Assembly (NCBI GenBank): GCA_016930515.1
Contig: JAFGGO010000099.1
Span: 1-25,526 of the forward strand
From: Promethearchaeota archaeon
GTDB lineage: Archaea; Asgardarchaeota; Lokiarchaeia; Sigyniarchaeales; SOKP01
Reading direction: 5' to 3'
DNA: 25,526 nt
In this document: positions 4,858-25,526 of the stretch, one piece after another
How the letters are laid out: each line of letters begins with the position of its first letter
How positions within the stretch are numbered: position 1 is the stretch's first letter
Program-made: the position numbers and the translations under genes
The notes under the pieces: model-generated
What the model saw: the letters and a program-made list of their open reading frames with translations, nothing else
The model's database searches: none
Told to the model about the DNA's origin: nothing

Positions 4858-5844
4858 TTATTGATTTTCAAAGGATTTTTCCAAGCCTTTTATTAACACC
4901 GTAATTAATTCGTTAATTGGAACGGAAATGTTAATTTCTTTAGCGTAATTTACTATTCTTCCGTTTATAAAATCAATTTCAGTCTTTTTTCCTTTTAAAA
5001 TATCCTGAAGCATTGAATTCTTGTTTGAAGACGTTTTTTTCGCAACATCATAAGTCAAGGCAATAAAATCTTTTTGAGAAAGGTGAATATTTTTCTTTTC
5101 AGCAATCATTAGTGCTTCATTTATCGCTCTTGCCATAAAATTCTTCAAATCCTGGTTTTGTAATAATTGACCGTTTCTTAATCGCGTTAAAGCCCCAAAC
5201 GCGTTAATTCCAATGTTAATAAAAACTTTCTCCCAGCATTCTCCCTGAATATTTTCCACAATAATGGTCTCTAAACCAGCGTCAGATAAAAGTGTTTTTA
5301 AAGTATCGAGATCCTTTGATTTGAGTTTTATATCTTTTTTCTCAAAGGGAAAGCCAATCTTCGTAACACCAATTCCCGTATGAACTATTCGACCATCACC
5401 CTCTCTTAAGGCTCCGTTAGTTGTAACCATTCTTACAAGCTTATTTTCGTCGCAATACTTCTTTGCAACGTCTTCATTTCCAATACCATTTTGTAGGAGA
5501 ATTAAAAAATGACTTTCTGCAATTACCTTCTGATATTGTTGAAGAGTTGAGTCGGTATCGTAAGTTTTTGTAGTAAGAAAAATGAAATCAAAATTAAATG
5601 GTATATTATAATTTTCTGCTTCCTCAAGACTTTCGAACGCTTTAACATTTTTTACCACGATTGTCGAGTCCTTTATTTGAATAAAAAGCCCTTTTTCACG
5701 AATGGCTTTCACATGTTCTTTTCGTGCGAATAAAACAATATCAATTGGTTTTGATTCAGAATGTAGGTTTGCAAGATAGCCCCCAAATAAGGAACCCATC
5801 GATCCTGCCCCAATAATTCCAATACGTATTTTTTTAACTGGCAA
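4858..5844 (-). CDS. panE: 2-dehydropantoate 2-reductase (ketopantoate reductase)
   Basis: GAGSMGSLFG Rossmann motif, TTKTYD, LLQNGIG, WEKVFINIGINAFGAL and SMLQDILKGKKTEIDFING. TTG start. Confidence 0.93.
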   Translation of the reverse strand: MPVKKIRIGIIGAGSMGSLFGGYLANLHSESKPIDIVLFARKEHVKAIREKGLFIQIKDSTIVVKNVKAFESLEEAENYNIPFNFDFIFLTTKTYDTDSTLQQYQKVIAESHFLILLQNGIGNEDVAKKYCDENKLVRMVTTNGALREGDGRIVHTGIGVTKIGFPFEKKDIKLKSKDLDTLKTLLSDAGLETIIVENIQGECWEKVFINIGINAFGALTRLRNGQLLQNQDLKNFMARAINEALMIAEKKNIHLSQKDFIALTYDVAKKTSSNKNSMLQDILKGKKTEIDFINGRIVNYAKEINISVPINELITVLIKGLEKSFENQ

Positions 5845-5865
5845 GGAACGAAACCGAATAGAATA

Positions 5866-7242
5866 TTATTTTTTTTGCTTTTCCCACTTTTTCAAATAAG
5901 TAACCTCTGAAAGCGTGGAACCTCTCTTTATTTCTTCCCTGTATCTATTTTCTTTCTCAAGTACATCAATGGCTCTATTAACCATTTCTTGTGCTTTCCT
6001 TTTCGGAACTACGACCACACCAGAATCGTCTCCTATGATCCAATCGCCTGGTTCAACCTTTTGACCTGCACATTCGATACTCACATTATTTTCGCCTAAA
6101 CCTCGAGGTTCCCCCGCAGTAGGGGTAAAATGTTTTGCATAAGCGGGAAATTTCATTTTTCTTATATCGTCAATATCTCGTATCGCACCATCAATGACGA
6201 CACCCGATATACCCTTGGTCTTGCAACTCCAAGACGCTAATTCGCCCCAAACTGCGATTTCTCCCGCACAAGCGTCTATAACTATTACATCTCCTGGTTG
6301 TGCTTCTTCTATCGCCTCGACAGGCTTGCTCCAATCACCGTTATACGTTCGAACGGTATAAGCAGGACCAACGAATTTTAAAGGATGGTCTTCAGTACCT
6401 ATCCACACGGGTTTTAAGCCTTTCATCTCTCCGCTTCTATGCATTGCGTCAGAAACATTTGGAGCCGAAACCTTTTTGAATGCATCTCTAATATGTGCCT
6501 CATCGTACTTTTTAAAAAGCGCTGTTTCTACAGCTTTTGCAGATTTTATGGCTTGTTTGATTTTTTTAGCCGATTCTTCGGGATTTTCTGCCTTATAGAG
6601 CGCACCACCTACAATAATAACATCCACACCCAGTTGTTTTGCGTGCGCGGCTGTTTCACTGTTGATTCCTCCCGCAATTGCGAGCCATGTGGTAGGTTGG
6701 AGCTTTTCTTTTAGTACAGTGGCAACATCGAGAGTTTTTTCTCCTCCATAAATTACTTGTTGATCCACACCAACATGAGAAACTATCATATCTACACCTA
6801 GTGATTCTAATTCTATCGCTCTTTGTACAAGTCTATCAGGAGGAATATCTATCGTATCGCATCCTAACATTACCCCAAATTTTTTTGCTGCTTCTACGGC
6901 CTCTGTTACGGAGGCATTATCGCTTCCACCAAGCATTAAAACGACATTAGCTCCCGATTTAGCGGCAATTTCTATTTCTACGGACCCCCCATCTGCAGTC
7001 TTCATGTCAGCGACGAGAATCTTGTCTGGAAATCTTTTGTGCAATTCTCGCAAGATATTCATCCCTTCAGATTTTATCAATGGAGTTCCAGCTTCTATCC
7101 AATCCACCCCTCCTCTTACAGCTTCCTCAGCTATTTGCAGCGCTCGATGAGTGTTTATCAAATCAAGGGCTATTTGCAGATAAGGTTCTTTTTCTCGTTT
7201 TCTTAACAATAAAATCACGGAGGTATATTTTTTTTTAAACAC
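5866..7242 (-). CDS. hxlA: 3-hexulose-6-phosphate synthase fused to a C-terminal RraA/HMG-aldolase-like domain
   Basis: N-domain: LQIALD, IEAGTPLIKSEG, ADMKTADGG, HVGVDQQ, AGGIN, IVGGAL (HPS/KGPDC TIM barrel). C-domain: NVSDAM, GPAYTV, GDVIVID, AVWGELAS, GVVIDGAIRDID, PGDWIIGDDSGVVVVP (RraA family). The true start may be the TTG at 7209. Confidence 0.9.
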   Translation of the reverse strand: MFKKKYTSVILLLRKREKEPYLQIALDLINTHRALQIAEEAVRGGVDWIEAGTPLIKSEGMNILRELHKRFPDKILVADMKTADGGSVEIEIAAKSGANVVLMLGGSDNASVTEAVEAAKKFGVMLGCDTIDIPPDRLVQRAIELESLGVDMIVSHVGVDQQVIYGGEKTLDVATVLKEKLQPTTWLAIAGGINSETAAHAKQLGVDVIIVGGALYKAENPEESAKKIKQAIKSAKAVETALFKKYDEAHIRDAFKKVSAPNVSDAMHRSGEMKGLKPVWIGTEDHPLKFVGPAYTVRTYNGDWSKPVEAIEEAQPGDVIVIDACAGEIAVWGELASWSCKTKGISGVVIDGAIRDIDDIRKMKFPAYAKHFTPTAGEPRGLGENNVSIECAGQKVEPGDWIIGDDSGVVVVPKRKAQEMVNRAIDVLEKENRYREEIKRGSTLSEVTYLKKWEKQKK

Positions 7243-7545
7243 TCGTTAGTTTAATAAATCCAAATATTTTTTACAAAATAATTTTTTCGCATATGATAAT
7301 TCAATAGTGAAATAAAATCCCACATTTTATTGTATTTTTTATTATATTTGCGATACTTAATTTTCTTATTAATTTCAGTTGTTATTAAAGGTAATCATTA
7401 AATTATTTAAAGACTTGTTTTTAAAGGTTCAATCAAGAGAAGGAATTTTCTTATTATAACAATTATATCCCTTAAGTGTTATGCTAAGCTCAATAATTTG
7501 AACAGAATAAAATCTATAATGAATAATCAAAAATTCAGTTATGTT

Positions 7546-8499
7546 CTAGTCCAAAGATTCACATTTGATAATTTCTGGACCTTTATTACTTATTGATGTC
7601 TTAATAATTTTAATTTCTGGAGAGTAGGAGTTTAAAATCTTTCTTACATCACCTTCGTCTTTTTTTTCGCAGATTGCAAATATAGACCTCCCAAGTTGGT
7701 TCATACTAGCACCAATGATGTCCAACTCGTTTAATTTAACCATTAATTCCTTGGTTTTTTCAAGTCTGAGTATTTCAAGTATATTCGTTTCTTTTACAAA
7801 CTCTAAAGAGGCTTCCATGAATGTCTTAAGACTTGGTTTTTTAAGGAGTAAATTTAGAGCTCTTCTCCCATTTTCTTTGATTTTAGCACTCAAAACGGGA
7901 TCTGTTAATATTGATTTTGTATGGATCATGCCAAATGTTCCACAATAAACCACTAAATCTGGTGGAAATTCGATATTTTCCCGGGAACAAGGGTATCCTG
8001 GTTCCTTTAAAACGCACAAACCACCAATTAATTGACCACAGACCGTTCCTAACCCGGTCCTGTTCACGACTTCTGCCACATGCGCTATTCTCCCGCATTC
8101 TCGAGTATCTAATCCCAGATTGAGAATCTTATTTAACCCGTATATCGCTCCAAGGGCCCCAGAACCGCTCGCCCCGTAACCACACCCCACAGGTAGTTCA
8201 AAAAAGTGTTCAATTTCTAATTTAACGGGATGTTTTATTAAATTGCAAATTTCTTTGTAAATCGAAAAAGTGGTTTCTGCTTTCTGGTTTAACTCTTCGT
8301 TATTAATCTTTATAATACATTCGGATGTATGGTTTGCTTCAAGTTGTTGACAAGTTATTTCAGTCCTACCTAATGCGCTTAAATTAAATCCTGCTCCCCT
8401 AGATCCTATCTTTTCGGGAATGGAACTGACTTGATCCACTATTTCAAAAAATCCCGAAATCCTATGAGGCACCTCTACAATTACTTTATGTTTGTTCAT
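7546..8499 (-). CDS. pok: Archaeal pantoate kinase (GHMP kinase family)
   Basis: PHRISGFFE, GSRGAGF, GHMP motif LPVGCGYGASGSGALG, AHVAEVVNRTGLGTV and SMNQLG. Confidence 0.88.
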   Translation of the reverse strand: MNKHKVIVEVPHRISGFFEIVDQVSSIPEKIGSRGAGFNLSALGRTEITCQQLEANHTSECIIKINNEELNQKAETTFSIYKEICNLIKHPVKLEIEHFFELPVGCGYGASGSGALGAIYGLNKILNLGLDTRECGRIAHVAEVVNRTGLGTVCGQLIGGLCVLKEPGYPCSRENIEFPPDLVVYCGTFGMIHTKSILTDPVLSAKIKENGRRALNLLLKKPSLKTFMEASLEFVKETNILEILRLEKTKELMVKLNELDIIGASMNQLGRSIFAICEKKDEGDVRKILNSYSPEIKIIKTSISNKGPEIIKCESLD

Positions 8500-11569: not shown

Positions 11570-13090
11570 TCATGTACGGTTATCAGAAACGGCGTATTCG
11601 GCCCAACCGCGCTTCAGATCACCTTTAGTGCCCATCATTTCTTCTTTAATCCAACCATCGTAGATCTTCCACATTTGCTCTAAATTATTCGTTATTCGCA
11701 CGCCTCTCTTTAATGGGTCCTTCCTAGCATTACTATAATCTAAGAAATAAACGATATATTCAGGGAAATATCCGCTATCGCCCTTGTTTGTTTTCCACGC
11801 CATGAATTTTTTTATTGCATTATCTCCCTTGTCGTAAACGGCTTTTGCTAAAACTTTTGAAGATTTCAATTTAAGTTCTTTCACGGAGTCCGACACTTGG
11901 ATGTCTAAAAGATCTGTAATTTGACTGATTCGCACATCTTCTATGTTGGATGCATCTTTATCCGATCTAATTGGATCTGTTTCGATGAATCGAGGGTGGA
12001 TGAGCTTAACGAATGGCATTAGACGAATCATTTTCCACTCGTTGTTATCCTTATCGAAAAATAAAGACGGTTGCATGATGGGCTCTCCTTCGTGGTCCGT
12101 GATAATGTCCAAGTATTCTAATTGCCCAACTAATTGAGGCTTTACCATTTTCATGGCCCTTCCGTCTCGAGTCGTGGTGATAAAACTTCTTGATTCGATT
12201 ATTTCGAATTGAGACCAGATTTCTCTTCTTTGATCGTCTGTCAAGCCACCACCCACTCTCGTTAAAACTTGATAATTTCCATCGGGATACCTTAACGCAA
12301 CGAGGGCAGTTGCAAGTTGATTTTCTCCCAATCGAGAGTCTTGCCGACCTTCTGCGATAGCAATTATCGCAACATCAAGAGTGTGAATTGGTTTAATTTT
12401 AAGGGTAAGATGTCCTGCTCGGACGATCAATCCCTCGTGTCCACCTTTAACCACGGTTTTAAAATAATATTCCTGCAAGTCGTGTGTATTGGAAAACGAT
12501 TTCGTTCGAACAGGGGCGATCCTGCCATCTTTTTCGAATATTTCTGAAAGCTTATCATGACGTTCCCTGTATTCCTTTTCTAACCAATCTTTTCCATCTA
12601 TTTCAACCACATCAAAAACTCGAAATCCAATTCGTTCTAAATCTTCATCGGATGAAGGATTTCTCCTATAACGCATCAAATCGTATACGGTTGATCGGGC
12701 GTTAAAATCAATGGGTGTTGTCGTTGATGCGTGCATCTCTCCCATAAAGAGGGCAGACTTAATCCCTTTTTTTTTCATGATTTGCTTCATTTCGTCATTA
12801 ATAGGCAACCCGAGGAAGACCCGGTGAGTAGGCGTGTTAAAAAAGATCGATTCGTCTTTTTTTTCGTCGTAGTAATATCCTGTAAAAGCGCCATCAACTT
12901 TTACACTCGCTATGAAATTTTTTCCAGGAAGTCCTATGATGTCTTCTTCTCTTCTCGTTAAAAAGCGTTGAGTAATATTTTTTCGATAAAAATCTATTTT
13001 TTTAGCCAAATCAGAATAAGGTAGGCTTTCAGATTTGCCTCTTAAATATCCGTGGAAAGACGTCTCAATTTTATCTTTAGTTAATTTCAT
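11570..13090 (-). CDS. Compact ATP-dependent DNA ligase (NTase + OB domains) with an extra C-terminal domain
   Basis: Motif I SVKVDG (K64), III FMGEM, IIIa FRVFDVV, IV HEGLIVR, V LKIKPIHTLDVAIIA. OB domain RVGGGLTDDQR and VKPQLVGQLEY; motif VI-like HPRF. No N-terminal DNA-binding domain. Confidence 0.85.
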   Translation of the reverse strand: MKLTKDKIETSFHGYLRGKSESLPYSDLAKKIDFYRKNITQRFLTRREEDIIGLPGKNFIASVKVDGAFTGYYYDEKKDESIFFNTPTHRVFLGLPINDEMKQIMKKKGIKSALFMGEMHASTTTPIDFNARSTVYDLMRYRRNPSSDEDLERIGFRVFDVVEIDGKDWLEKEYRERHDKLSEIFEKDGRIAPVRTKSFSNTHDLQEYYFKTVVKGGHEGLIVRAGHLTLKIKPIHTLDVAIIAIAEGRQDSRLGENQLATALVALRYPDGNYQVLTRVGGGLTDDQRREIWSQFEIIESRSFITTTRDGRAMKMVKPQLVGQLEYLDIITDHEGEPIMQPSLFFDKDNNEWKMIRLMPFVKLIHPRFIETDPIRSDKDASNIEDVRISQITDLLDIQVSDSVKELKLKSSKVLAKAVYDKGDNAIKKFMAWKTNKGDSGYFPEYIVYFLDYSNARKDPLKRGVRITNNLEQMWKIYDGWIKEEMMGTKGDLKRGWAEYAVSDNRT

Positions 13091-13099
13091 CGTTTTGTG

Positions 13100-13807
13100 C
13101 TACCTCGTTTTTTTTTTCTTTGGAAGTTTTATTTCTTGATCAGAGATGTGAAGAATAAGACAATATGAATCGTCCTTTACCCTTCCCTCTAAAAATGCTC
13201 TAGGAAATTTCCTTCCACCATCGTACAGAACTAAAGGTTCCTTTTTTTTTGTATCTGAATTGTAGGCCTCAACCAATGCAAATTTACCAGATAAAAATAA
13301 TTTTTTAGCAATATCAAACAAAAATTTATAGGAAGCTCCATCGTAATGAGTGATAAAATAACTCTTACGAAACACATAATTCACAAGTAAATCCTTAGGC
13401 TCGAATAATTCTTCGGTTATCCTAACTGGTAGTGTCCCATGAACATTTCCTGTTGATCGTTCGTGTGGTCTCTCCTGTTTTTTTCCATCGGGTCTTATAA
13501 TCACATCAAAAGACTTGAAATTATACACGGGATCGTAGTTATCTTTTACTGCGATTCTCGAAGTCGACTTGATATACCTCCCCGTCGTGTTTGGATCTAC
13601 ATCCACATCTTCATCCTTGAGTTTTTTCACGAGGTCAGGCTCCTCAAGAAGTTTTTCATCAGATTTTTCTCGATCAAAAATTAGATACCTTTTACTATCG
13701 ACCTTTTTTCCATCAGGACTCAACCTAAAATATTTCTTTGTCCCGTGAGTGGGAATCAGTTCCAAGTTCTTTGCGTCAATCTTTTCGTAAGCCAAATATA
13801 TTTTCAT
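13100..13807 (-). CDS. Hypothetical protein, putative divergent Ku core domain (Ku-like B)
   Basis: VRITEELFEPKDLLVNYVFRKSYFITHYDGASYKFLFDIAKKLFLSGKFALV...YCLILHISDQEIK resembles the prokaryotic Ku pattern (ieI..Fv...eidp.YF.rsYyl.p.....kay.LLr.aL..sgk.aia...l.l..l.y.dEvr). Basic C-tail. GAGGTGA SD upstream. Confidence refers to the Ku call; the ORF itself is secure. Confidence 0.6.
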   Translation of the reverse strand: MKIYLAYEKIDAKNLELIPTHGTKKYFRLSPDGKKVDSKRYLIFDREKSDEKLLEEPDLVKKLKDEDVDVDPNTTGRYIKSTSRIAVKDNYDPVYNFKSFDVIIRPDGKKQERPHERSTGNVHGTLPVRITEELFEPKDLLVNYVFRKSYFITHYDGASYKFLFDIAKKLFLSGKFALVEAYNSDTKKKEPLVLYDGGRKFPRAFLEGRVKDDSYCLILHISDQEIKLPKKKKTR

Positions 13808-13816
13808 TTCTTCTTA

Positions 13817-13823
13817 TCACCTC
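13817..13823 (-). promoter_or_regulatory. Shine-Dalgarno GAGGTGA overlapping the stop codon of the upstream gene
   Basis: Minus strand reads TGAGGTGATAAGAAGAAATG. Similar GAGGT(G) motifs precede the ligase (13102-13106) and rad50 (17261-17266). Confidence 0.7.
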
Positions 13824-14421
13824 ACCACACATCAAATTCGGGTTCTTCTTCCTCTTCTTCGTCATAATACAATATTTCTTGCGGTTTTAACATTACTGGG
13901 GCGATATATTCTCCAATAGCAACAAGCAATACATCATCTTTAGGAATGAGTATTGCGTCTTTCGGATCTACCGTATCGTAATAAGCATATGTGAATTTGT
14001 ACAATTTATCTTGTTCCTCTAACAATTTTTCACAAGCTATCTTGAGATCTTGAAGATTTTCAGACTCTAAGACATACAACCTCTCAACATCATAGCAAAA
14101 ATAATCGAGTAGATTAATCGTGCTTTCGATGTTAACGGGTCCAGAATACATCGACTTGGTTTTAGGTAACTCCTTGCCATCTTCACCAACCACGATCGTT
14201 TCTTTCGTGTAAAAACCGTCTTCGTTCAAATAAGAACTTCCCATTCCGCCCGAAGGAACGACGTGGGTGCCGTCAGACGAGAGATAAGCGTTTTTAAATA
14301 TATTTCCATCGTTGTCCCTTCGCTCAATAATGATTTTTCCGTAAACATCGTCTCTCGAGAGCGCTTTCAACGAGCCCACAATGTCCTTTCCCTCTAATTG
14401 TAAGGTTAATTTTCTTGGCAT
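13822..14421 (-). CDS. Hypothetical protein, putative divergent Ku core domain (Ku-like A)
   Basis: RDNDGNIFKNAYLSSDGTHVVPSGGMGSSYLNEDGFY resembles the Ku bridge (h.kdg.ri.y.rv....g.eV....ivkgYe...g.y). VNIESTINLLDYFCYDVERLYVLE...LLEEQDKLYKF...AILIPKDDVLLV resembles the Ku core. Acidic C-tail. Confidence refers to the Ku call. Confidence 0.5.
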   Translation of the reverse strand: MPRKLTLQLEGKDIVGSLKALSRDDVYGKIIIERRDNDGNIFKNAYLSSDGTHVVPSGGMGSSYLNEDGFYTKETIVVGEDGKELPKTKSMYSGPVNIESTINLLDYFCYDVERLYVLESENLQDLKIACEKLLEEQDKLYKFTYAYYDTVDPKDAILIPKDDVLLVAIGEYIAPVMLKPQEILYYDEEEEEEPEFDVW

Positions 14422-14440
14422 TTTACATCCTCTATTTTCA

Positions 14441-14476
14441 AACTTATAAGTTCTAATTAAGGATTATTTAAAAAAA
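14441..14476 (-). promoter_or_regulatory. Candidate internal promoter (TATA-like TTTAAATA) and 12-bp palindrome upstream of the Ku-like pair
   Basis: The 121-nt gap after rad50 contains minus-strand TTTTTTTAAATA and, downstream of it, the perfect palindrome AACTTATAAGTT (14441-14452). Confidence 0.35.
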
Positions 14477-14542
14477 CAATCAGTAAAGAATTTTTAATAC
14501 TATACAAATTTCAACCTAATTTCAGATCGTTTTTAAAGCGAT

Positions 14543-17251
14543 TTAAGAATTAAGAAATTGCACGTGAGAAATTTCATCTTCGTCTTTCGAGAACTTTATG
14601 ACATTTTCAGCGCTTTCCTCAAATGTGTCGTCGTGAGATATGATAAAAAGTTGTTTGAAGCCTTTAATGTTTTGAATGCATTTAGCAAGGTTTAATCGCA
14701 CATCGGAGTCCAAATTCGTAGTTGGTTCGTCAAAAAAGGCAAAATCAGCGTTAGTTAATATTTTCAAAATCGAAAGGCGAACGGATAATGCAACTGCCAT
14801 TTGCTCGCCCCCTGATAATTGATTATATTCTTTTTCTATTTCAGGCGTGATGAGCCGCACGTTATAATCTTTTTCTAGTTTTAACTGAACGGCATCGGAA
14901 TCAGTTAGTTCCCTGTAAATTTCAGATGCTAGTTGGTTGATTTTATTGAGTAATGCTTCAGTTATTTTTGGTCCAGCTTCTTTATAAATAAGGCGGAGAG
15001 ATTCGGTGAGATCTCTTGAATAAACTAACCAAGCCCTTTGTTTTTCCAATTTCTCGAATTTTACTTGAAGGTCAACAAGGTGTTCCATTTTTTGTTCGTG
15101 TTTGAGCAAAATAGCGCCTTTTTCATCAATCTTTGTCTTCATTTGAATTGTTATTTCAAGCAAATTTTCCTTTTTAATCCTCGTCTCATTGAATTCTTCG
15201 TTGTTAAATAAGGTTAAAACATGCTTGATCTCTTTTTTGATAGAATCAAGGTTATTTTTAGTATTTTCCATGAGTTTGTTTTGTTTGGCAAGCTCTTTTT
15301 CGAGTTCGGGTACTTTATTGGCGATATTTATCGATTTTTGATACTTATTGTAATTTTCAATCGTTTTTTCTAATTCCTTTTTAACGGTCGTAAACTCTTC
15401 TGGAACATGTTTTAATTCGTTAATTTTTTTATCGAGTGGTTTTAAAATCTTCTCGAGCGGTTTTAATTCGGATAATAATTCGGTTTCTTCTTTCTGTAAT
15501 TTGGGAAGTTCAACATTAATCTTTTCTTTATAAAGTTGGTATTGCTCGATTGAGGATTTAAGTTGCTCCTTGCGATGCATGAGCTCATCGAGGCGTTTCT
15601 TCAGCTCTAATTTCAAACTAACTTTTTCTTTTAGTTCTTTAATTTGATTGATATATTCAATGTATAATTTCTTCACACTTCTTAATTCTCCCTCGTCTTC
15701 TGATAATTGCTCGATTTTCTGTTGTAAGCCCGAAATTTTTTCAATTTTTTTGTTAAATTCATTTAATTTATTTATCGTTGATTTTAGTTCTTCTTTTAAG
15801 GGTACGAGTTGTTTATGGAAGTGATCTATAAGCGAATTTCCCTCGATGTTCTTGCATTTTTCGTTCAGAAAGGGACAATTTCCTCCTTTCGAGTTTTTTA
15901 TGTTTTCTTCAAGGTGTGCAATTTCCGTATCGAGGGTGATTCTTTTTTCGTTAAGCTGATTATATTCGTTCTGGAATACCTCAAGTTGGGAATAATCGCT
16001 TCTAATTTTAGGAAGAACTTTCAATTTATCTTCCAATTCAAATTTCCTTTTATTATTTTCAAGGTGTTTTTCCTTGATTCCGTCTAAGTTTTCTTGATAT
16101 GCCATTATGGTTTTAATCTGCCCTTGTAATTCTTCGATCTTTTTCTGGATATCTTCTGATTCATTAAAATTTTCTTCTAATTTGGGAATCATATTTTTCA
16201 TACTTGAAATATCTCCAATTTGAGCACGAACCCTTTCGATTTTTGCGTTAAATTCTGTAATTCTTTTTTCTGAATTTGTTTTTTGTTCTTTAAAGGCTTG
16301 GAGTTTTAAATGATGTTCTTGAAGTTCTTTTTCTTTAATAATTAGTATCTTATGTTTAGTATGGTCTGAAAGTGCTTGTTTACAAATTTTTTCGGATTCT
16401 CTAGCTTCTAATAGATTTTTCTTGATAAGATCTGTGGTTTCTCCTTCACTTACTAATTTTTGTTCTAGTTCTTTCTGTTTAAGATCCAAATCTTTTAATT
16501 TTTCTTCCATTTTTTTTAATTTATCATGTTTTTCAGATACTTGCTTGAGCTCTTTTTCATTTGTTTCAAGATCAGATTCGAGTTTCTTAATTTCATCCTT
16601 TAATTGTTCTATTTCTTGCTCCGTTTCTTCTTTTTCCTTCAATTCTCCTTCCAATTTTCCCATTTCTACAGCTAATTCCTGAATCTCGTTCTTGAATAAA
16701 TTCACTAATTTAATCCCTTTTTCATAAATATTACGATACACATCTACATTTAAAATTGGATTAAAAAATTTCATTCGTTCAGTAGGCGTTCGGAGAAATG
16801 GTTCGGTAAAAGTCCCTTGAGGGATGCCTATGGAAGTCTCAAAAATGTTGGAAAGGTTCAAATCTTTTCTTAATGAAAATTGCGTTTTTAACCAGGCTAT
16901 AAGGTCGCTTTTATTATCTATGTTTTGAATCAAAACGCCTGTCCGAGCGTCTGATATTTCTATCGCATTATTCTGTTTCCCAATCGTCCTTTCCACGATA
17001 AAAACATCGTCGTTGAGACCCACAACCCATAATTTAATTACACCGTATTTAGGTGTTTTTCTTACGGTGGTACGCACATAAGACTTTTGATTTCCTGGAA
17101 GATAATTGAATAATACATATCCAATCATGTTTAATATCGTTGATTTTCCCGTACCGTTTTGACCGAGTAACATGTTTAAACCTTCTTGAAATTCAATAGT
17201 AGTCCTTTTATGGGTTGTGATGTTTTGTAGTTCGATTTTTTTAATCAACAT
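14543..17251 (-). CDS. rad50: Rad50/SbcC SMC-like ATPase
   Basis: Walker A GQNGTGKS, Q-loop IPQG, long coiled coils with a central CPFLNEKC, signature LSGGEQ, Walker B/D-loop FFDEPTTNLD, H-loop ISHD. Confidence 0.95.
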   Translation of the reverse strand: MLIKKIELQNITTHKRTTIEFQEGLNMLLGQNGTGKSTILNMIGYVLFNYLPGNQKSYVRTTVRKTPKYGVIKLWVVGLNDDVFIVERTIGKQNNAIEISDARTGVLIQNIDNKSDLIAWLKTQFSLRKDLNLSNIFETSIGIPQGTFTEPFLRTPTERMKFFNPILNVDVYRNIYEKGIKLVNLFKNEIQELAVEMGKLEGELKEKEETEQEIEQLKDEIKKLESDLETNEKELKQVSEKHDKLKKMEEKLKDLDLKQKELEQKLVSEGETTDLIKKNLLEARESEKICKQALSDHTKHKILIIKEKELQEHHLKLQAFKEQKTNSEKRITEFNAKIERVRAQIGDISSMKNMIPKLEENFNESEDIQKKIEELQGQIKTIMAYQENLDGIKEKHLENNKRKFELEDKLKVLPKIRSDYSQLEVFQNEYNQLNEKRITLDTEIAHLEENIKNSKGGNCPFLNEKCKNIEGNSLIDHFHKQLVPLKEELKSTINKLNEFNKKIEKISGLQQKIEQLSEDEGELRSVKKLYIEYINQIKELKEKVSLKLELKKRLDELMHRKEQLKSSIEQYQLYKEKINVELPKLQKEETELLSELKPLEKILKPLDKKINELKHVPEEFTTVKKELEKTIENYNKYQKSINIANKVPELEKELAKQNKLMENTKNNLDSIKKEIKHVLTLFNNEEFNETRIKKENLLEITIQMKTKIDEKGAILLKHEQKMEHLVDLQVKFEKLEKQRAWLVYSRDLTESLRLIYKEAGPKITEALLNKINQLASEIYRELTDSDAVQLKLEKDYNVRLITPEIEKEYNQLSGGEQMAVALSVRLSILKILTNADFAFFDEPTTNLDSDVRLNLAKCIQNIKGFKQLFIISHDDTFEESAENVIKFSKDEDEISHVQFLNS

Positions 17252-17254
17252 GCT

Positions 17255-18841
17255 TTAAAACACCTCAAAGTCAGATTCTTCATCCTCTTCTTCTCCGTCG
17301 TCTATATATAAATCCAAATCTATATCGTCAAATTCGTCATCATCGGAAAGTTCAAATCCTTCAATCCCATCTTTATCCTTAGCTTCAGTTTCTGGTTGAT
17401 TTATGATTTTAAATAATTTTTCTTTATCCTCTTCTTCTTGTTGATATGTAGAGAATACTTCTTCGATGGATTCGAAGTCTTTTATATTAAGTTTGACCCA
17501 TTCTTTAATTTGATTTCGTAATTTAGAATAATTTGGTTTTCTATCTGTTAATTCGGTTTTTAGATCGTCCATCAAGCCAAGTACTTTTTCTTTTATTGGG
17601 GAGAACTTCTGATTCTCTTCTACCAAGGCTAAGAAGATTTCCCGTTCTATTTCATCAATGGTCAAATCAGTACCAGATGTTTTTATGGTATCAAGAGAAG
17701 AATATAAATCCTTGCTATATGTTCTAACGTCTAATAGCGCAAATTCGTCTAAAATCTTTTTGCGAAGCTTATTAAGGTTAATTTCTAAACGAGAATACTT
17801 TATTTCTCCTTTTATTGAAAAAACTAAAATCATCGTATCAAGATCTTCTCTTGAAAAATTAGGATTGTTTTTTTTCAATGGAATGTTGTAATTTCTAACC
17901 CGTTGAACAATCATATCAATAGCTTGATCAAAGGAGTTTGTTGACCCAATATCAATCGAGCTCATGGAATAGAAGCGCCTATTTGGAATTAGATGAGGAT
18001 CTGAAGCACCATTATCGCAGGCAATTGGTCTAATATTTCTTTTATAAAATTCCTTTCCCGTAATATTACAAATAATTGCCCCTCTAGGATATTGTAAACT
18101 CGGAATTTCGAAAATATCCGTTGTTTCTAAACTCCCTGGATTGAATATCCATGGTTCCGAAGCCGGATAAGAAAATGACCTGTGATAATGTCCTAATGCC
18201 AAATAATCAATCTTTTCACCAAGTTTCTTCAAATTATCGCTTATTTCTATACCTGGCTTTTTCTTGTCATAACCTTGAACGCCAAAGTGCATCATTAATA
18301 TGTTAAACTTTGAGGAATCGGAGTTTATTTCGTTGTAAATAGATGGAAAAAGGTTTTCAGTAAAACTTCCATAGTAGGGAAGCCCATATATATTACAATC
18401 CTTTATTTGTATCGTTCCTCCCCTGCGAGTTTCGTGTGAGTATTTTTGAAAACTCACTTTTTTCGAATTTTTATCGAATTGCCCGTTTAGTAAAATAATT
18501 AATCCCAAATCGGCCAAGAAACTCATCCACGATTGGGAAGAATATATTGGATTGTCGTGATTTCCTTCAATGCATATAATTTTTATATCTCTTTTTAACC
18601 TTTTATTACATTCAAGCTGAAAATCGGTTACAATATTATAGACTTCACTTAGGACGGACGGTCCAATCTTCTTGTTATCGAATAGATCTCCAGAGATCAG
18701 AATGAAATCCACTTCTTCCTTGATACTAAGTTCCAAAATCCATTTAAAAGCCTCGAAATAATCCCGATATCGTTCTTCAAGATTGTATTGTTTTTTCCCG
18801 AGGTGCAGGTCCGCAATGTGGATATACTTAACAGGATCCAT
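17255..18841 (-). CDS. mre11: Mre11/SbcD metallophosphoesterase nuclease with long acidic C-terminal tail
   Basis: HIADLHLG, SGDLFD, EGNHD, MMHFG, LGHYH and NPGSLE. Lies 3 nt upstream of rad50. Confidence 0.93.
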   Translation of the reverse strand: MDPVKYIHIADLHLGKKQYNLEERYRDYFEAFKWILELSIKEEVDFILISGDLFDNKKIGPSVLSEVYNIVTDFQLECNKRLKRDIKIICIEGNHDNPIYSSQSWMSFLADLGLIILLNGQFDKNSKKVSFQKYSHETRRGGTIQIKDCNIYGLPYYGSFTENLFPSIYNEINSDSSKFNILMMHFGVQGYDKKKPGIEISDNLKKLGEKIDYLALGHYHRSFSYPASEPWIFNPGSLETTDIFEIPSLQYPRGAIICNITGKEFYKRNIRPIACDNGASDPHLIPNRRFYSMSSIDIGSTNSFDQAIDMIVQRVRNYNIPLKKNNPNFSREDLDTMILVFSIKGEIKYSRLEINLNKLRKKILDEFALLDVRTYSKDLYSSLDTIKTSGTDLTIDEIEREIFLALVEENQKFSPIKEKVLGLMDDLKTELTDRKPNYSKLRNQIKEWVKLNIKDFESIEEVFSTYQQEEEDKEKLFKIINQPETEAKDKDGIEGFELSDDDEFDDIDLDLYIDDGEEEDEESDFEVF

Positions 18842-18875
18842 TATTAATTACTTTTATTTTTAGTTTGAATTAAAT

Positions 18876-21800
18876 TTATTGCCTATATCGAAATCTAATT
18901 TCTTTTTCTTGATCTTTATCATCTATTATTGTCAATTTTTTCTCTGTATTACAATAATTATATGCATATTTTCTTATTTGAGCGGCCTCTTCCATTACTT
19001 TACGATCGCTTGGTATGTTATTCAAAAACATGTCGCTCGAAATTAAAATTACCTTACATTTTGCTCGAGATGTTAGAACATTAAATCGATTAAGATTATA
19101 AATAAATTCAACTTCAGCGTTGAGTTGATCCTTATCGGATAAACCAATTGAGGCAATAATAAATTCTCGATCCGATCCTTGAAATTTTTCAACTGAATAG
19201 ACCGTATTTTTGAGTAGTTTCATTAATAAAGCAGGCTCGAGCAAGGTTTTTTTATCAATTGAATCTATCATTTTAGTATATATTTTTCGGATAATTAAGC
19301 GTCCTTGAGCGTTGTGAGGCGCAACAACACCAATTTTTTCCTTCCAAAAATTTTGCTCGTCTTGTTTAGTTTTGAGCTCACTCATTTTAAAATATCCAAT
19401 TACAAGTTCTGAAACCATTTCAGCTTCTAATGTACTCACTCCTATCTCGTATTTATTATCGTGAACGAGAGCACCAACTATTTTATTTGGATCCAAAACA
19501 TCCTTAATCCAAGTAGTTTTAATATTATTTAAGTTACCACCAAGTTTCAAACTTGCGTTTAATGGTGCAGCTTTTAATTTCTTATAAACTCCCAACATTG
19601 AAGTAAATTTCACAATTGCCTTGTTAGATCTGTAATTAACTTGGAGTTGACGGCTAGGAATTGAATGTGCTTGAACATAATAACCAAACAAGCTTTGCAG
19701 GACTTTTTCTAAATTTTTTGGAGGATTTAAAGGTTGCACGGGGGGAAGTTGATTATAATCACCAACTATAATTATTTTTGTAAGTTTTGCAATTTCTTGA
19801 TTTCGATCGATTTCCAATCGGTTAATCATTGAAGCGTCTTCAATTAATTTATTTGGTTTATAGGTAATACTTGGTTTTCGGAGCTCAAGCTTAACATTTC
19901 TTACGAATTGGAGGCTCGACATGAAATAATCAACTTGTAGTTGACTTGCCTCGTCAACGATAATCAGATCGAAATAAAAGTCGGATCTTACCCTTTCTTT
20001 TAAATGATATAATTGATGAGCATTTGCGAATAAAATAAAATCCTCTTCTAAGGACTCTTCTAATGGTCTTGTTGCGGTGACCGTTCTAGATTGACCGTTT
20101 AATTTCCAAGAATATCCCTTTCTTAGCAAATCGTCCACATCCCTGCACCCTGCTTTTTTATCAACGGGTTTTTGATGTTCAGAGCGTAAAAATATTAGTT
20201 GGGTTTTTGCTGAACTTGTTGGATTTCCTGATTTATCATTGCTTTGTCGCACTTTATTTATAATAACTCGAATTGCTGCGTAGGAAAACGCAGTTACCAA
20301 GATCCTATTTTTAATACATTTCTGCTTATTTCTCTCGATATATTCGTCAATCAGGGCTGCAATTGTTTGGGATTTTCCCGTACCTGGGGGGCCTTGAATT
20401 GCAGAAATAAATTGTCCTAAAGAATTATTAATTGCTCGCGATTGAGATCTATCTGGAGGAGGTAATATTGGAGTAATTAATGGTCTCTTCAAATTATTTT
20501 TTTTCACATCGATAAGCTGAAATAGCAGTTCTGGAGCAAACAAATAGATCGAAGGCGAATTAAATACCCAACTTGAAGGCCAGCGTAGTTTAGGATTAGA
20601 TCTAACCTTCCATAAATAGGAGCGCCGACTTCCTAACCATGAAGTACCGAAGGAGTGTCTTTGGAGAAGTCCGTCTTCACGATAGAGCTTGTTTGACCAA
20701 CTATCAACAGATGTGGGATATACATACCAAGCAGTATCGTTAACATTATGAATATATTTTCTAAAGAACTTTCCCCTAGTTAATTCAGATTCAACGATAT
20801 ATCCATTGTTTTCATTGCTCCAGGTTAATTTTTTAATAATTATCTTGCATTTTTCCATGTTATTTCCTGATCTCATTCCTCTTTTATTGTCAGGAATTAA
20901 ATAGACGCGATCACCTTCGTCTATTTTCATGTTGCTCGAAAGATTTACTAAAAAGAATTGAAAGGATACCTTTTTATCAAAGTCAAGCATCTGCAAGTTA
21001 GTAACCTTACCAGCAGCTAATTTTGCAATGCTATATTCGGGATATATCGTTCGAAATCCTTCAGCTTCGGTTTCGTCCATCGCACCGAGGTATTTAGAAA
21101 ATAAGTACCATACTTGGGCTATTGGGTGGTAATGCGAATCTAAAAAAACGCTTTTTAACTTCTTATCAGTTATGACTCTTGAATGTTTTGAAACAAAACT
21201 CCCCCCCTCTCTTTGGAAGTAGGATCTCAAGTCGTTAATAGTCCTGACTTTAAACATGAGTTGCTGCTTGAGCTTTTTCTTTAATTCTTTATTTTTAGTG
21301 GGATCTTCTTCAAGAAGATAATCGTACCAGTTATTGAAATCCATATAATTGAAATGAGGAATCCAATACATCGAATTTACCTTTTTATCAAGCAGTCTTT
21401 TTGCGATTTCGTGCCAGGTGTAAGATATTATGCCTGGAATTCCAAAAATGGTCTCAGAAAACTTTTGAATGTCAAATAATTTTTTATGCTGATACGGATG
21501 GGTTACCTCCGAATCAGAAGGTTTGAATAGAGAAAGAATCGAATTTAAAGAGTTAGCCGTTTTGGGATCGTCAATGATGTATTCAAGAGTGCGCTCGAGC
21601 ATGTCTTGAAAATTGTTTAATTGTCTTGAAGACCAATAATAAAAGCTCGTTGTTGGTCCAAAAAACTTTCCAGGCTCAAAAGCTTCCACTACAACATAAT
21701 TTTCAATGATATTGCACATATCAAATATTGTACTAAGGTAATTTATCACATGTTTTGAGAACTTCGCTTCGGATTCATCAGTGTCTCCCTCGTTCACGGA

Positions 21801-23345
21801 AGCGAACTGATAAATAACAATGGTTCGCTTACGAACCCCAGTTCCATTTTTTCTTGGTTCTCCTTTAGGAAATATTAGAAATTTCTTTAGCGTGATTAAA
21901 TAATTTAAAAACAACTCTACATATTCTAAAGGTATTTTTCGGAACAAAAATGCGTTGAGCATTTCGTGTATTTCCTTGGCAGTTTTGTGGGCTTTCAATG
22001 CTTCGTCCCAAACTTGCCACCAGTTGTCAAACATTAAACTATAAGCAGAATTTGGTGATATTGAAATATATAAATAAAGACCAACACCATATACTCTTTG
22101 ATTAGCTGGATCGGTCTCAATAGCAATGTTTAAAGCGATTGATGTAAATTTAGGTATTAAATAGGCATGAACCTGCCCCATCTGAGGGGGGATGATATCG
22201 TCGTTTATAATTGCGCGAGCTTTCAAGTCTAATAGTGGTTTCTCAGAATACAATGGTTCGGGAGTATCGCCAATCTGAATGCTTTTCAAATTATTGTTCA
22301 CATCCCCTATCGTTTTCATTCCCTTTTCCATCAATTGTTGAGCAATAGAAGTAGATGTATATGGAAGCAACATTAAAGACCAATCCTCTGGAGAAGTTGA
22401 TCCATCAACTCCTAAGAATTTTTTACAATCCTCAATAAAAAAACAATAACCGCAATTAGATTGAATGTTTACTGGAATATTTGAAATATTGCAAGGTGTT
22501 TTCATCCAGAGTTTTTTAATCTCATTGATGGTCTCTATGAAGATTCTATGCGATTCGTTAAAATGGATTCCGATGGAAAGCTCGTGAATATCTTGAATAT
22601 TTTTAATCATGAGTTTGTCGTCAGTATTATAAGGAAAGATGGCGTTGTTATCGATATTTATGAAAAATTTATCAGTTAATCTTTTATGACGCAAATAATA
22701 CGAAAGCGTCCACATATAATAAAATATTTCTGTAAATTGCTTTTTCCCGATCTTTTCTTTCCTTATGTTTTTAATGTCTATTACATTTATTCCGTATCGA
22801 TTATTCAGTTCGATTTCGGGAATTGAGCGAACAGTACCCTCGGGTAAAAGCTCTTTAGTTTTTCTAGCGTTTTTTCCCTTAATTTTTTGAATCACGAGAA
22901 TATCGGGTCTTTGCCTTGCGTAATCTACAGGCACTCGATCGTTTGGATGCTTTAATTCGAATAAGTCTCGAAAAAAGGATTCGGGAATTTCAAACTCGTG
23001 TTCGAGCAAGACGAGAAAATCATCTTGAGAGCTTGAAAGCATTGAATGATAACTCAAAAATTCTTTTTCGTCTAAAAAAGATTCCGTGACACTACTATTT
23101 TGAGAGATCTCGCATTTAACATTGGTTAAACTAGTTATTTTTGAATATACTTTTTGTTCGTACTTTTTTCCAAGCTTTTCAAGGTTTTCGGATCCCCGAT
23201 ATTTTCGCTTGGGTTTTTCGAGCTCCACTATTGGATCGAACCACAAGTATGGTTTATTTCTACCAAGATCTAGAAAGAGCTGCCTTTCGCATTGTGTTTG
23301 AACATACCGGGTTAAAACCTGCTTGTTAAAATTATTCTTATCCAT
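18876..23345 (-). CDS. RecB/Cas4-like PD-(D/E)XK nuclease + RNase H-like domain + Upf1/Dna2-like SF1 helicase
   Basis: N-terminus: CERQL, RPDIL, IDIK, EIFYY, CGYCFFIEDC. Middle: NIAIETDP, LFDI, SYTW. C-terminus: QGPPGTGKS, VTAFS, IVDEASQ, VGDYNQLPP, NYRS, VAPHNAQ, VEKFQGSDRE, RFNVLTSRAK. Confidence 0.88.
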   Translation of the reverse strand: MDKNNFNKQVLTRYVQTQCERQLFLDLGRNKPYLWFDPIVELEKPKRKYRGSENLEKLGKKYEQKVYSKITSLTNVKCEISQNSSVTESFLDEKEFLSYHSMLSSSQDDFLVLLEHEFEIPESFFRDLFELKHPNDRVPVDYARQRPDILVIQKIKGKNARKTKELLPEGTVRSIPEIELNNRYGINVIDIKNIRKEKIGKKQFTEIFYYMWTLSYYLRHKRLTDKFFINIDNNAIFPYNTDDKLMIKNIQDIHELSIGIHFNESHRIFIETINEIKKLWMKTPCNISNIPVNIQSNCGYCFFIEDCKKFLGVDGSTSPEDWSLMLLPYTSTSIAQQLMEKGMKTIGDVNNNLKSIQIGDTPEPLYSEKPLLDLKARAIINDDIIPPQMGQVHAYLIPKFTSIALNIAIETDPANQRVYGVGLYLYISISPNSAYSLMFDNWWQVWDEALKAHKTAKEIHEMLNAFLFRKIPLEYVELFLNYLITLKKFLIFPKGEPRKNGTGVRKRTIVIYQFASVNEGDTDESEAKFSKHVINYLSTIFDMCNIIENYVVVEAFEPGKFFGPTTSFYYWSSRQLNNFQDMLERTLEYIIDDPKTANSLNSILSLFKPSDSEVTHPYQHKKLFDIQKFSETIFGIPGIISYTWHEIAKRLLDKKVNSMYWIPHFNYMDFNNWYDYLLEEDPTKNKELKKKLKQQLMFKVRTINDLRSYFQREGGSFVSKHSRVITDKKLKSVFLDSHYHPIAQVWYLFSKYLGAMDETEAEGFRTIYPEYSIAKLAAGKVTNLQMLDFDKKVSFQFFLVNLSSNMKIDEGDRVYLIPDNKRGMRSGNNMEKCKIIIKKLTWSNENNGYIVESELTRGKFFRKYIHNVNDTAWYVYPTSVDSWSNKLYREDGLLQRHSFGTSWLGSRRSYLWKVRSNPKLRWPSSWVFNSPSIYLFAPELLFQLIDVKKNNLKRPLITPILPPPDRSQSRAINNSLGQFISAIQGPPGTGKSQTIAALIDEYIERNKQKCIKNRILVTAFSYAAIRVIINKVRQSNDKSGNPTSSAKTQLIFLRSEHQKPVDKKAGCRDVDDLLRKGYSWKLNGQSRTVTATRPLEESLEEDFILFANAHQLYHLKERVRSDFYFDLIIVDEASQLQVDYFMSSLQFVRNVKLELRKPSITYKPNKLIEDASMINRLEIDRNQEIAKLTKIIIVGDYNQLPPVQPLNPPKNLEKVLQSLFGYYVQAHSIPSRQLQVNYRSNKAIVKFTSMLGVYKKLKAAPLNASLKLGGNLNNIKTTWIKDVLDPNKIVGALVHDNKYEIGVSTLEAEMVSELVIGYFKMSELKTKQDEQNFWKEKIGVVAPHNAQGRLIIRKIYTKMIDSIDKKTLLEPALLMKLLKNTVYSVEKFQGSDREFIIASIGLSDKDQLNAEVEFIYNLNRFNVLTSRAKCKVILISSDMFLNNIPSDRKVMEEAAQIRKYAYNYCNTEKKLTIIDDKDQEKEIRFRYRQ

Positions 23346-23617: not shown

Positions 23618-24115
23618 ATGGCTAAAAAACCAGTAGATAAAGAAATAAAGGATTTTGTTGATAAATTAAATAGAACAATAAAAGATTCTAGCGTTCCCCC
23701 TCGAATCAGCAAGGCTATTTCCATGTTCAAGAAACAGAGAAACTTACTTTACCTTGATAAGAATGGGGCTGAATTAAAGGCAGTAATCAAATCGCAAACA
23801 AACAACGATTTGGACTACGCCATCTCAATTAAAAGCGACGGCAATTTCTTTTGTGGAACCCAAAATCTTCGTCCTTGTGGAGGGTTGAGAGGTAAAATAT
23901 GCAAGCACATCATATTAGGATTGATCGCCGCAATTAAATCGGGCGAAGCAGACATTAATAGCATGATAGAGTGGGTTCAAAAAACGAGCTCTAATAAGCC
24001 CTCCTTGCTTAGAGACGAGGCAATGGAGATATTCGTCAAATATAAATGCGCATTAGATGGTGAAATAGAATGGAGACCCATTGAGCTTCTTCCCGAAGAT
24101 TTCATAGCGTTCTAA
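23618..24115 (+). CDS. SWIM-like zinc-finger protein
   Basis: RISKAISM...LKAVIKSQT...YAISIKSDGNFFCGTQNLRPCGGLRGKICKHIILGL: the beta-meander plus C...C...CxH layout of SWIM proteins, with an expanded spacer. Confidence 0.75.
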   Translation: MAKKPVDKEIKDFVDKLNRTIKDSSVPPRISKAISMFKKQRNLLYLDKNGAELKAVIKSQTNNDLDYAISIKSDGNFFCGTQNLRPCGGLRGKICKHIILGLIAAIKSGEADINSMIEWVQKTSSNKPSLLRDEAMEIFVKYKCALDGEIEWRPIELLPEDFIAF

Positions 24116-24135
24116 ATAATGAATCACAAATAATC

Positions 24136-24480
24136 ATGCTAGAAAATTTAGATATTAAAAAAATTTTTGACATCTTGGACGCTATATCCTCCAAACTAAG
24201 CGAAATCTTGATTAGAGGTATTGAAAATATTGGTCAAGGTGAACTTGATGATATTGCCAGATTAAACTCCAAGTTTCAAAAAATGAACTTGGAAGTTGCA
24301 AGCGATTTATTAAATTCCTTTTTCGAAAAAATTGATCATCTTAAAAATGGAATCAATGACAACAAACTAAAAAATAGCTTGGCAAGCGATATATTAAAAG
24401 TTATCACCTCAATGAAGATGTTTGAGATAGTTTTAACAACCGAAATAGTAAAAAACGGACTAAAAACAGTAGAAGAATGA
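24136..24480 (+). CDS. Small alpha-helical hypothetical protein
   Basis: 114 aa of amphipathic helices (LSEILIRGIENI). Gaps of 20 nt and 1 nt to its neighbours suggest an operon. Confidence 0.75.
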   Translation: MLENLDIKKIFDILDAISSKLSEILIRGIENIGQGELDDIARLNSKFQKMNLEVASDLLNSFFEKIDHLKNGINDNKLKNSLASDILKVITSMKMFEIVLTTEIVKNGLKTVEE

Positions 24481-24481
24481 T

Positions 24482-25526
24482 ATGAGTCTTCAAATAGAGA
24501 ATGTGTCTAAACAAATCAAGCAATTAATGGAAAATTTAACCTATAACGGTTTAAATTTAGTTTCAAAAGAAAATATCAGGCAATTAGAATTATTCCTGCA
24601 AAACACCTCCCAGCTAGGAGCCTATCGTCTCGCTACATCTTTAAGATACTTGCACGTGGAACTTAATCGCTTTTTAACCAACAGTTCAGCTTTCAACATT
24701 GAAAGATATGTTTTTTTTTTAAATAATTGTTGGTTGCAAAGTCGTGCTTTTTTGTCAGAAACCCTTTTAAAAGATAAACGCAAAATTTTTAAAGAAACAC
24801 TTATGAAGAGGCCTTCCAAGCCTCAATTATTAAAAGAATTAGAGCTTAGAGTTGCTGGAATCGAAAAAGTCTTATTAGAAGGTTCAATGTTTGGATTTAT
24901 TTTTCACATCCTCAGCTTGTCTGGTCAAAGTAAGGGTAAAATATTTCAGTGGAGCTTATTACAACCACCTCAGGGTTCAATACAACCAGAATTATTATTG
25001 GGGCAATCTTTTAAAAATTCAAGACCAAAATCTTTGATAGGTTCGATTATATATAAGAAATTTCAAGCACAAAATGTGCCGAATTTGGAGAAGGAAGGCA
25101 TTATTTTTCTTATGAGGGAGCCAAATACGAAGATTCTTTTTACAAAAAAAGAATCAAATAAAAATGTTTCTTATGATTCTGATTCAATTGCTATTTTACA
25201 AGATTATAGCCAATCTGCTTCTGAAATACTCCAGCTCATAGAAAATAATGACAATTCCACACCTTTTGATGTACCAAAGATTAGTTTAGATTATATCTAC
25301 CTTAAGAATGTTAAAATATCTAATTTCGAAAGAGAAAATAATAAGTATTCCAAGAATAATACTGTCGTTTTTAAAATTGAACATAAAAATCATTACAATC
25401 TCCACACCAGAATACTGGATAAAATAATCAATCAAAAACTCATTAATAAGCTAGAATTGTTCTACGAAAATCAAAATCTAATTGAAGGAATGTTTGGAAA
25501 ATTATGTATGCAACGAGGACAGCTCG
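24482..25526 (+). CDS. Hypothetical protein, truncated by the window end (absent from the ORF track)
   Basis: ATG at 24482, open for 348 codons to the end: MSLQIENVSKQIKQLMENLTYNGLNLVSKENIRQLELFLQNTSQLGAYRLATSLRYLHVELNRF...FFLNNCWLQSRA...MFGKLCMQRGQL. Confidence 0.85.
   Translation, partial: MSLQIENVSKQIKQLMENLTYNGLNLVSKENIRQLELFLQNTSQLGAYRLATSLRYLHVELNRFLTNSSAFNIERYVFFLNNCWLQSRAFLSETLLKDKRKIFKETLMKRPSKPQLLKELELRVAGIEKVLLEGSMFGFIFHILSLSGQSKGKIFQWSLLQPPQGSIQPELLLGQSFKNSRPKSLIGSIIYKKFQAQNVPNLEKEGIIFLMREPNTKILFTKKESNKNVSYDSDSIAILQDYSQSASEILQLIENNDNSTPFDVPKISLDYIYLKNVKISNFERENNKYSKNNTVVFKIEHKNHYNLHTRILDKIINQKLINKLELFYENQNLIEGMFGKLCMQRGQL

Follow-up and report, generated by a model that had tools for sequence, protein, structure and literature searches.

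Do six adjacent repair genes of an Asgard archaeon encode one system for mending DNA double-strand breaks (DSBs), or do they belong to separate systems that have come to lie side by side? The question is raised by a 25,526-nucleotide stretch of a Promethearchaeota archaeon genome (GenBank assembly GCA_016930515.1, contig JAFGGO010000099.1, positions 1 to 25,526; hereafter the window), in which six minus-strand open reading frames (ORFs) form one run encoding a nuclease-helicase, Mre11, Rad50, two small Ku-like proteins denominated KuA and KuB, and an ATP-dependent ligase. The original prediction, made from the sequence alone, regarded this run as an undescribed DSB repair locus, and its basic description held: the ORF listing confirmed six co-oriented genes with intergenic gaps of 34, 3, 121, 14, and 9 nt, domain scans identified the superfamily 1B (SF1B) helicase, Mre11, Rad50, and the ligase, and the Ku pair was recovered by predicted fold. 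Pfam and NCBIfam scans also agreed that HerA, NurA, archaeo-eukaryotic primase (AEP)/PrimPol, and phosphoesterase (PE) domains are missing from the six genes. The locus is composed of two abutting, independently conserved modules, i.e., a juxtaposition and not a conserved unit. The reading favored here, with a probability of roughly two in three, is that these are two adjacent DSB repair modules, an Asgard end-resection machine and a cryptic Ku-ligase end-joining system.

Two Small Proteins With a Ku Core Fold

KuA (199 aa; 13822..14421, minus strand) and KuB (235 aa; 13100..13807, minus strand) had no match in Pfam, NCBIfam, PHROGs, or PADLOC, and their profiles retrieved neither a Ku chain nor anything else meaningful from the PDB sequences. 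The Ku family PF02735 had no match anywhere in the window's genome, and the two proteins showed no similarity to each other by BLASTP or profile-profile comparison. Their proposed Ku-like identity is therefore invisible by sequence and was borne out by predicted structure. The KuA model, derived from a 73-sequence alignment, had a predicted local distance difference test (pLDDT) score of 91.7, and the KuB model, derived from 44 sequences, scored 77.8, its arm region being modelled poorly. The top 50 Foldseek matches in the PDB were all Ku for both models, headed by bacterial homodimers, and Ku alone was returned from the ESM Atlas and a viral structure library. Both predicted structures contain the Ku core fold of a beta-barrel with extended bridge/pillar arms.

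Pairing of the two proteins, as suggested in the original prediction, was supported by a heterodimer model in which KuB is the partner of KuA. The interface score (ipSAE) was 0.74, 0.73, and 0.74 compared to 0.00 for the best control, at least 84% of contacts were common to the runs, the partner pLDDT was at least 76, and the interface included the arm regions. Author-built alignments served as input for the heterodimer model. Of 80 solved complexes, 58 attained the score mark used, as did 2 of 110 mismatched pairs; the value may be helped by likeness to solved Ku dimers.

A Ku/SPOC-like barrel could also serve in end protection, in RNA repair together with the ligase, or in protein or peptide binding. 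The barrels of SPOC and INTS13/14 score close to Ku, the ligase has a weak RNA_ligase match in the Pfam scan, and a sequence-level tie of KuA and KuB to Ku is lacking. Such a role is nevertheless quite improbable, as the SPOC and INTS13/14 alignments are confined to a core of ~100-110 residues while arm-inclusive alignments (150-176 residues) were seen with Ku alone, the modelled dimer interface takes in those arms, and the linked ligase, AEP, endonuclease/exonuclease/phosphatase (EEP) protein, and SbcCD make up the classical toolkit for non-homologous end joining (NHEJ).

The KuA family carries a conserved acidic C-terminal tail with the ending [DE]-F-x-[VM]-[WFML] in both archaea and bacteria, and the window copy ends E-F-D-V-W after an acidic run. 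The window KuB has a short basic C-terminus, and some bacterial KuB proteins (P0055-P0058, P0061, and P0069; ~280-320 aa) have Lys/Ala/Pro-rich C-terminal extensions like the basic mycobacterial Ku tail. Since nothing but the trio is conserved along with the KuA tail, this tail probably docks on the ligase or on KuB. Docking of the tail on either protein fits the known role of the C-terminus of Mycobacterium tuberculosis Ku (PMC9638933) and a natural fusion, the metagenomic protein P0133 (779 aa), in which the ligase of the trio is joined to a C-terminal KuA domain with the acidic-aromatic tail retained; the ligase part of P0133 shares 42% identity with the window ligase over the full length. 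An apparent 108-aa "short KuA" in the related locus L132 was considered as a truncated form and rejected as an assembly-gap artefact.

The Ligase and the Trio Across Genomes

The ligase (506 aa; 11570..13090, minus strand) is a stand-alone ATP-dependent enzyme. It has an adenylation and an OB domain, lacks a DNA-binding domain at the N-terminus, and carries a family-specific C-terminal extension of ~130 aa (residues ~380-506). This conserved extension closes with K-R-G-W in the window protein, in the P0133 fusion, and in the archaeal orthologues; the bacterial orthologue of a Chitinophagales locus (L016) has a similar ending, K-K-G-W. The protein lacks LigD-type features, having neither an AEP nor a phosphoesterase domain and scoring 52 bits against TIGR02779 (cut-off 228) and 42 bits against TIGR02776 (cut-off 373). 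A replicative-type ligase is encoded elsewhere in the window's genome.

A scan for KuB relatives in one genome per species yielded at least 485 loci, of which 80 were retained for neighborhood comparison. The carriers, at least 485 genomes, were overwhelmingly bacterial and included Bacteroidota, Acidobacteriota, Planctomycetota, Verrucomicrobiota, Chloroflexota, Gammaproteobacteria, and others. In 70 of the 80 loci, from many phyla, KuA and KuB stood together with an orthologue of the window ligase in the order KuA-KuB-ligase or ligase-KuA-KuB; contig ends break several of the 10 loci without the full trio. Linkage of a Ku-type gene to an ATP-dependent ligase gene, as in prokaryotic NHEJ operons, is thus present in these 70 loci and in the fusion protein. 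Mre11-Rad50 was absent from nearly all of the 80 loci. Canonical Ku was also present in only 3 of 38 trio-bearing genomes. The trio family was found in 13 of 61 sampled genomes from one acidobacterial order; in a sample of the Asgard phylum the trio was found in 3 and canonical Ku in 2 of 151 genomes.

The only recurrent extra neighbors of the trio were an AEP-superfamily protein (16 loci) and an EEP nuclease/phosphatase (5 loci). The AEP gene directly followed the ligase on the same strand in 11 Acidobacteriota loci and was within ~4 kb in any orientation in 5 loci of Pseudomonadota and Planctomycetota. The absence of PrimPol and PE therefore applies to the six window genes but not to the trio at large, which is joined by AEP and EEP partners in some bacteria. 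A search of the window's genome with an acidobacterial AEP neighbor as query gave no match, a result that shows little.

These features place the trio alongside canonical prokaryotic NHEJ, in which a Ku homodimer (PF02735) acts with LigD as in Bacillus subtilis and M. tuberculosis. Shared characters are the Ku core fold, the operon link to a ligase, AEP and phosphatase-type accessories in some loci, an accessory and patchy distribution, and a Ku C-terminal tail as the likely ligase-recruiting arm, with Lys-rich tails in some KuB proteins. In contrast, the trio comprises two different subunits, and no sequence similarity could be detected between them or with PF02735. Its ligase is a stand-alone protein that falls far short of the NHEJ-ligase cut-off, bears a C-terminal domain of its own, and is never fused to polymerase (Pol) or PE domains. 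NHEJ genes are also split in the archaeon Methanocella paludicola. In current papers, including structural ones from 2025-2026 (PMC12784961; PMC12784962), prokaryotic Ku is still presented as a homodimer that acts with LigD. The literature covered, with subscription-only papers outside this coverage, yielded no account of a module that joins paired Ku-like proteins to a ligase.

The original prediction had also allowed for a system against mobile genetic elements, and the locus or the trio might accordingly be imagined as a defense or conflict system directed at mobile DNA. The distribution is patchy, the AEP neighbors match only the "TOTE conflict system" AEP model, and two related loci (L129, 1-801; L132, 1-330) have a divergently oriented TIR_2 gene upstream of the nuclease-helicase; the window ORFs at the equivalent position (23618-25525, plus strand) had no Pfam match. 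The helicase domain weakly resembles the MkoA, DpdJ, and ProA models and Rad50 the LmuB models; however, these PADLOC matches are partial and concern generic ATPase domains, and KuA, KuB, and the ligase had no PADLOC match at all. Searches of 2.9 million viral contigs, 72,556 plasmids, and 50,697 phages turned up no relative, the flanks consist of housekeeping genes with conserved synteny, the ligase tree largely tracks bacterial phyla, and the locus holds the only Mre11 and Rad50 of the genome. Overall, nothing pointed to a mobile element or to defense, and this function is very improbable.

A Dna2-Type Nuclease-Helicase With Mre11 and Rad50

The first gene of the run (18876..23345, minus strand) encodes a 1489-aa nuclease-helicase recognized by Pfam/NCBIfam scans, motif reading, and PDB sequence matches. 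Its N-terminal PD-(D/E)XK nuclease has C19, D148, D190-x-K192, and C298xxC301x5C307, and the C...CxxCx5C arrangement is the iron-sulfur (Fe-S) pattern of Cas4/AddB/Dna2-type PD-(D/E)XK nucleases. The C-terminal third is an SF1B helicase of the Upf1/Dna2 type with AAA_11/AAA_12 domains. The motifs of the nuclease, the Fe-S cluster, and the helicase are all intact, and they are kept across 12 aligned sequences (the window copy and 11 orthologues). A middle region of ~650 aa has RNase-H-like features, consistent with the Atlas features of the protein (PD-(D/E)XK, RNase_H_2, and AAA_11 clusters). The family, of ~1490 aa, spans Loki-, Hermod-, and Heimdallarchaeota and has generic annotation only.

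The protein therefore has a Dna2-type architecture, an Fe-S-caged PD-(D/E)XK nuclease (as also in AddB and Cas4-type proteins) placed N-terminal to an SF1B Upf1-like helicase, and its gene adjoins mre11-rad50. Differences from eukaryotic Dna2 are the ~650 extra residues between nuclease and helicase and a helicase that is closer by sequence to NAM7/Upf1 (1e-12) than to DNA2 (6e-6) among its PDB matches, which also included Sen1. In one six-gene relative (L135:9526-9768), an 80-aa ORF with a BRCT domain lies immediately upstream of the nuclease-helicase.

Mre11 (528 aa; 17255..18841, minus strand), identified by Pfam/NCBIfam, matched PF00149 (1.9e-14) and, as its best NCBIfam hit, archaeal Mre11 (Mre11_Pyroc, 6e-29), the latter below the equivalog cut-off. 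The phosphoesterase motifs D-H, GD, GNHD, H, and GHxH are legible in the translation, the gene lies 3 nt from rad50, and the protein ends in an acidic tail with the last residues D-F-E-V-F. Rad50 (902 aa; 14543..17251, minus strand) matched PRK03918 over residues 1-889 (3.9e-66; 224 bits, cut-off 700) and carries the Walker A, signature, and Walker B ATPase motifs. Its hook at residues ~457-464 is C-P-F-L-N-E-K-C (CPxxNxxC, i.e., Cx6C) in place of CxxC; the Cx6C form is kept in eight Asgard Rad50 orthologues including that of Candidatus (Ca.) Lokiarchaeum ossiferum, and the more distant L105 protein has CPLC.

The Mre11 and Rad50 of the locus are the only ones found in the window's genome, which is 94% complete. 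A separate herA-nurA-mre11-rad50 locus, the check proposed with the original prediction, was not found: NurA is encoded on contig C139 and several DUF87/HerA-like genes on other contigs, with none beside mre11-rad50 and no second copy of Mre11 or Rad50. The module resembles the archaeal HerA-NurA-Mre11-Rad50 operon in that the sole Mre11-Rad50 of the genome shares an operon with helicase and nuclease functions, but differs in that both activities would reside in one SF1B/PD-(D/E)XK polypeptide, which has no relation to the folds of HerA (FtsK-like) and NurA, in that the NurA/HerA-like genes are unlinked, and in the CPxxNxxC hook.

The succession nuclease-helicase, mre11, rad50 was also found in L101, L102, L103 (cut), L104, L105, L110, L134, L136, L137 (Ca. 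Lokiarchaeum ossiferum), and L138. Where the sequence extends, none of these ten loci has Ku genes behind rad50, and the KuB family is wholly absent from four of five genomes with the module but no Ku genes. Because the sole Mre11 and Rad50 of the genome sit in it, the module looks like the organism's housekeeping resection machinery. A description of an Asgard helicase-nuclease/Mre11/Rad50 operon was not found in the literature, with the same coverage as above.

Juxtaposition of the Two Modules

The six-gene layout recurs in three further Promethearchaeota assemblies (L129, L132, and L135), with helicase identity down to ~54%, and is seen partly in L001. The synteny survey suggested with the original prediction thus showed that the linkage is not unique to this genome, but it did not sustain the idea of one conserved six-gene repair system, as each module occurs without the other in most genomes. 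A separate case is a Chitinophagales bacterium (L016:3224-9530) with five co-oriented genes in the order SbcD-SbcC-KuA-KuB-ligase, an independent juxtaposition. The arrangement is a lineage feature with more than one origin, and its repeated emergence suggests some functional benefit.

These same loci speak for all six proteins forming one integrated machine in which resection and joining are physically coupled, for instance by a docking peptide common to Mre11 and KuA: the layout is kept in four Promethearchaeota loci and partly in a fifth, the Chitinophagales cluster parallels it, and the D-F-E-V-F tail of Mre11, which resembles that of KuA, is present in three of the four six-gene loci (window, L129, and L132) with a similar form in one of eight other loci. 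Such a machine is unlikely given that each module stands alone in most genomes, that L135 has the six-gene layout without the Mre11 motif while a comparable tail, F-D-F-E-L, is found in Ca. L. ossiferum, whose locus lacks Ku genes, and that the 61-121-nt spacer at the junction could bear its own promoter. The covariation of the Mre11 tail with the Ku genes (at first 3/3 versus 0/5) was consequently downgraded, with L135 and Ca. L. ossiferum breaking the pattern, to an unexplained hint that is not counted as evidence. Slightly more doubtful still is a coupled switch between resection and joining, whereby an Mre11 copy of the KuA docking peptide would compete for the same receptor and the nuclease-helicase would be an archaeal forerunner of Dna2.

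Under the favored reading of two adjacent modules, Mre11-Rad50 would sense and clean DNA ends, and the Fe-S nuclease/SF1B helicase polypeptide would carry out resection, filling the role of HerA and NurA in other archaea and of Dna2 in eukaryotes. KuA and KuB, as very divergent Ku-fold proteins, may form a heterodimeric ring on DNA ends, where the acidic-aromatic tail of KuA would recruit the dedicated ligase and the ligase would seal the break. In some bacteria, the AEP polymerase and EEP nuclease/phosphatase may add end processing similar to the LigD Pol and PE domains. The position of the Ku-ligase module directly behind rad50 in one Promethearchaeota lineage probably allows co-regulation.

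Ancestry and Implications

The original prediction found a parallel with the eukaryotic set of MRX, Dna2, Ku70/80, and Lig4 striking in a probable Asgard archaeon while cautioning that likeness of parts does not show ancestry, and the caution proved sound. The trio does resemble Ku70/Ku80 and DNA ligase IV in having two diverged Ku-fold subunits, heterodimeric by model here, and a dedicated ATP-dependent ligase. However, the trio is present in few of the Asgard genomes sampled and widespread in bacteria, and both KuA and KuB fit bacterial Ku as well as they fit Ku80, without pairing off individually with Ku70 and Ku80. Because of this rarity and this lack of correspondence, descent of eukaryotic Ku70/80 from the KuA/KuB pair has no support. 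In a ligase tree rooted with the two other ligases of the genome, root support was 48 and long branches meet; the archaeal ligases formed one clade (99*) beside three bacterial superclades that largely follow phyla and was nested in none. With a weak root and an un-nested archaeal clade, no donor of a transfer can be named. A 2025 survey of Ku evolution makes no mention of Asgard archaea (PMC11936186).

The trio is a candidate new NHEJ variant awaiting experiment. Surveys using the Ku sequence model have concluded that most bacteria are without end joining. That model does not detect the Ku-like pair of two subunits with a dedicated ligase, which is common in bacteria presumed to lack end joining. 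Were the function of the pair confirmed, the known distribution of NHEJ would have to be redrawn, and Ku heterodimers would no longer count as an innovation of eukaryotes. For the resection module, a review of NurA from August 2026 leaves open whether Dna2-type nucleases functionally replaced NurA toward eukaryotes (PMC13748450), and an Asgard-wide operon of Mre11-Rad50 with a Dna2-style protein, including that of the cultured Ca. Lokiarchaeum ossiferum, makes this question testable. If the two modules did act as a coupled machine, it would let a prokaryote switch between resecting and joining DNA ends.

Spacer and Flanking Genes

The junction of the two modules is the 121-nt spacer between rad50 and KuA (14422..14542), delimited by reading of the sequence, and spacers of ~61-115 nt occupy the same junction in L129, L132, and L135. 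In the window spacer, a T-run precedes a TATA-like stretch rich in A and T, so that a second transcription start is possible and the spacer could hold an internal promoter. A scan for sigma-70 promoters and terminators gave 40 sites versus 43 expected, i.e., chance level, with a model ill-suited to archaea. GAGG-type Shine-Dalgarno motifs, reported in the original prediction for the run, are present 5' of rad50, KuA, KuB, and the ligase (four of six genes) but not of the nuclease-helicase and mre11. Downstream of the run, the window encodes a cluster of panE, an OMPdecase-RraA fusion, and a GHMP kinase (4858-8499), and the six-gene locus L129 keeps the same housekeeping synteny downstream.

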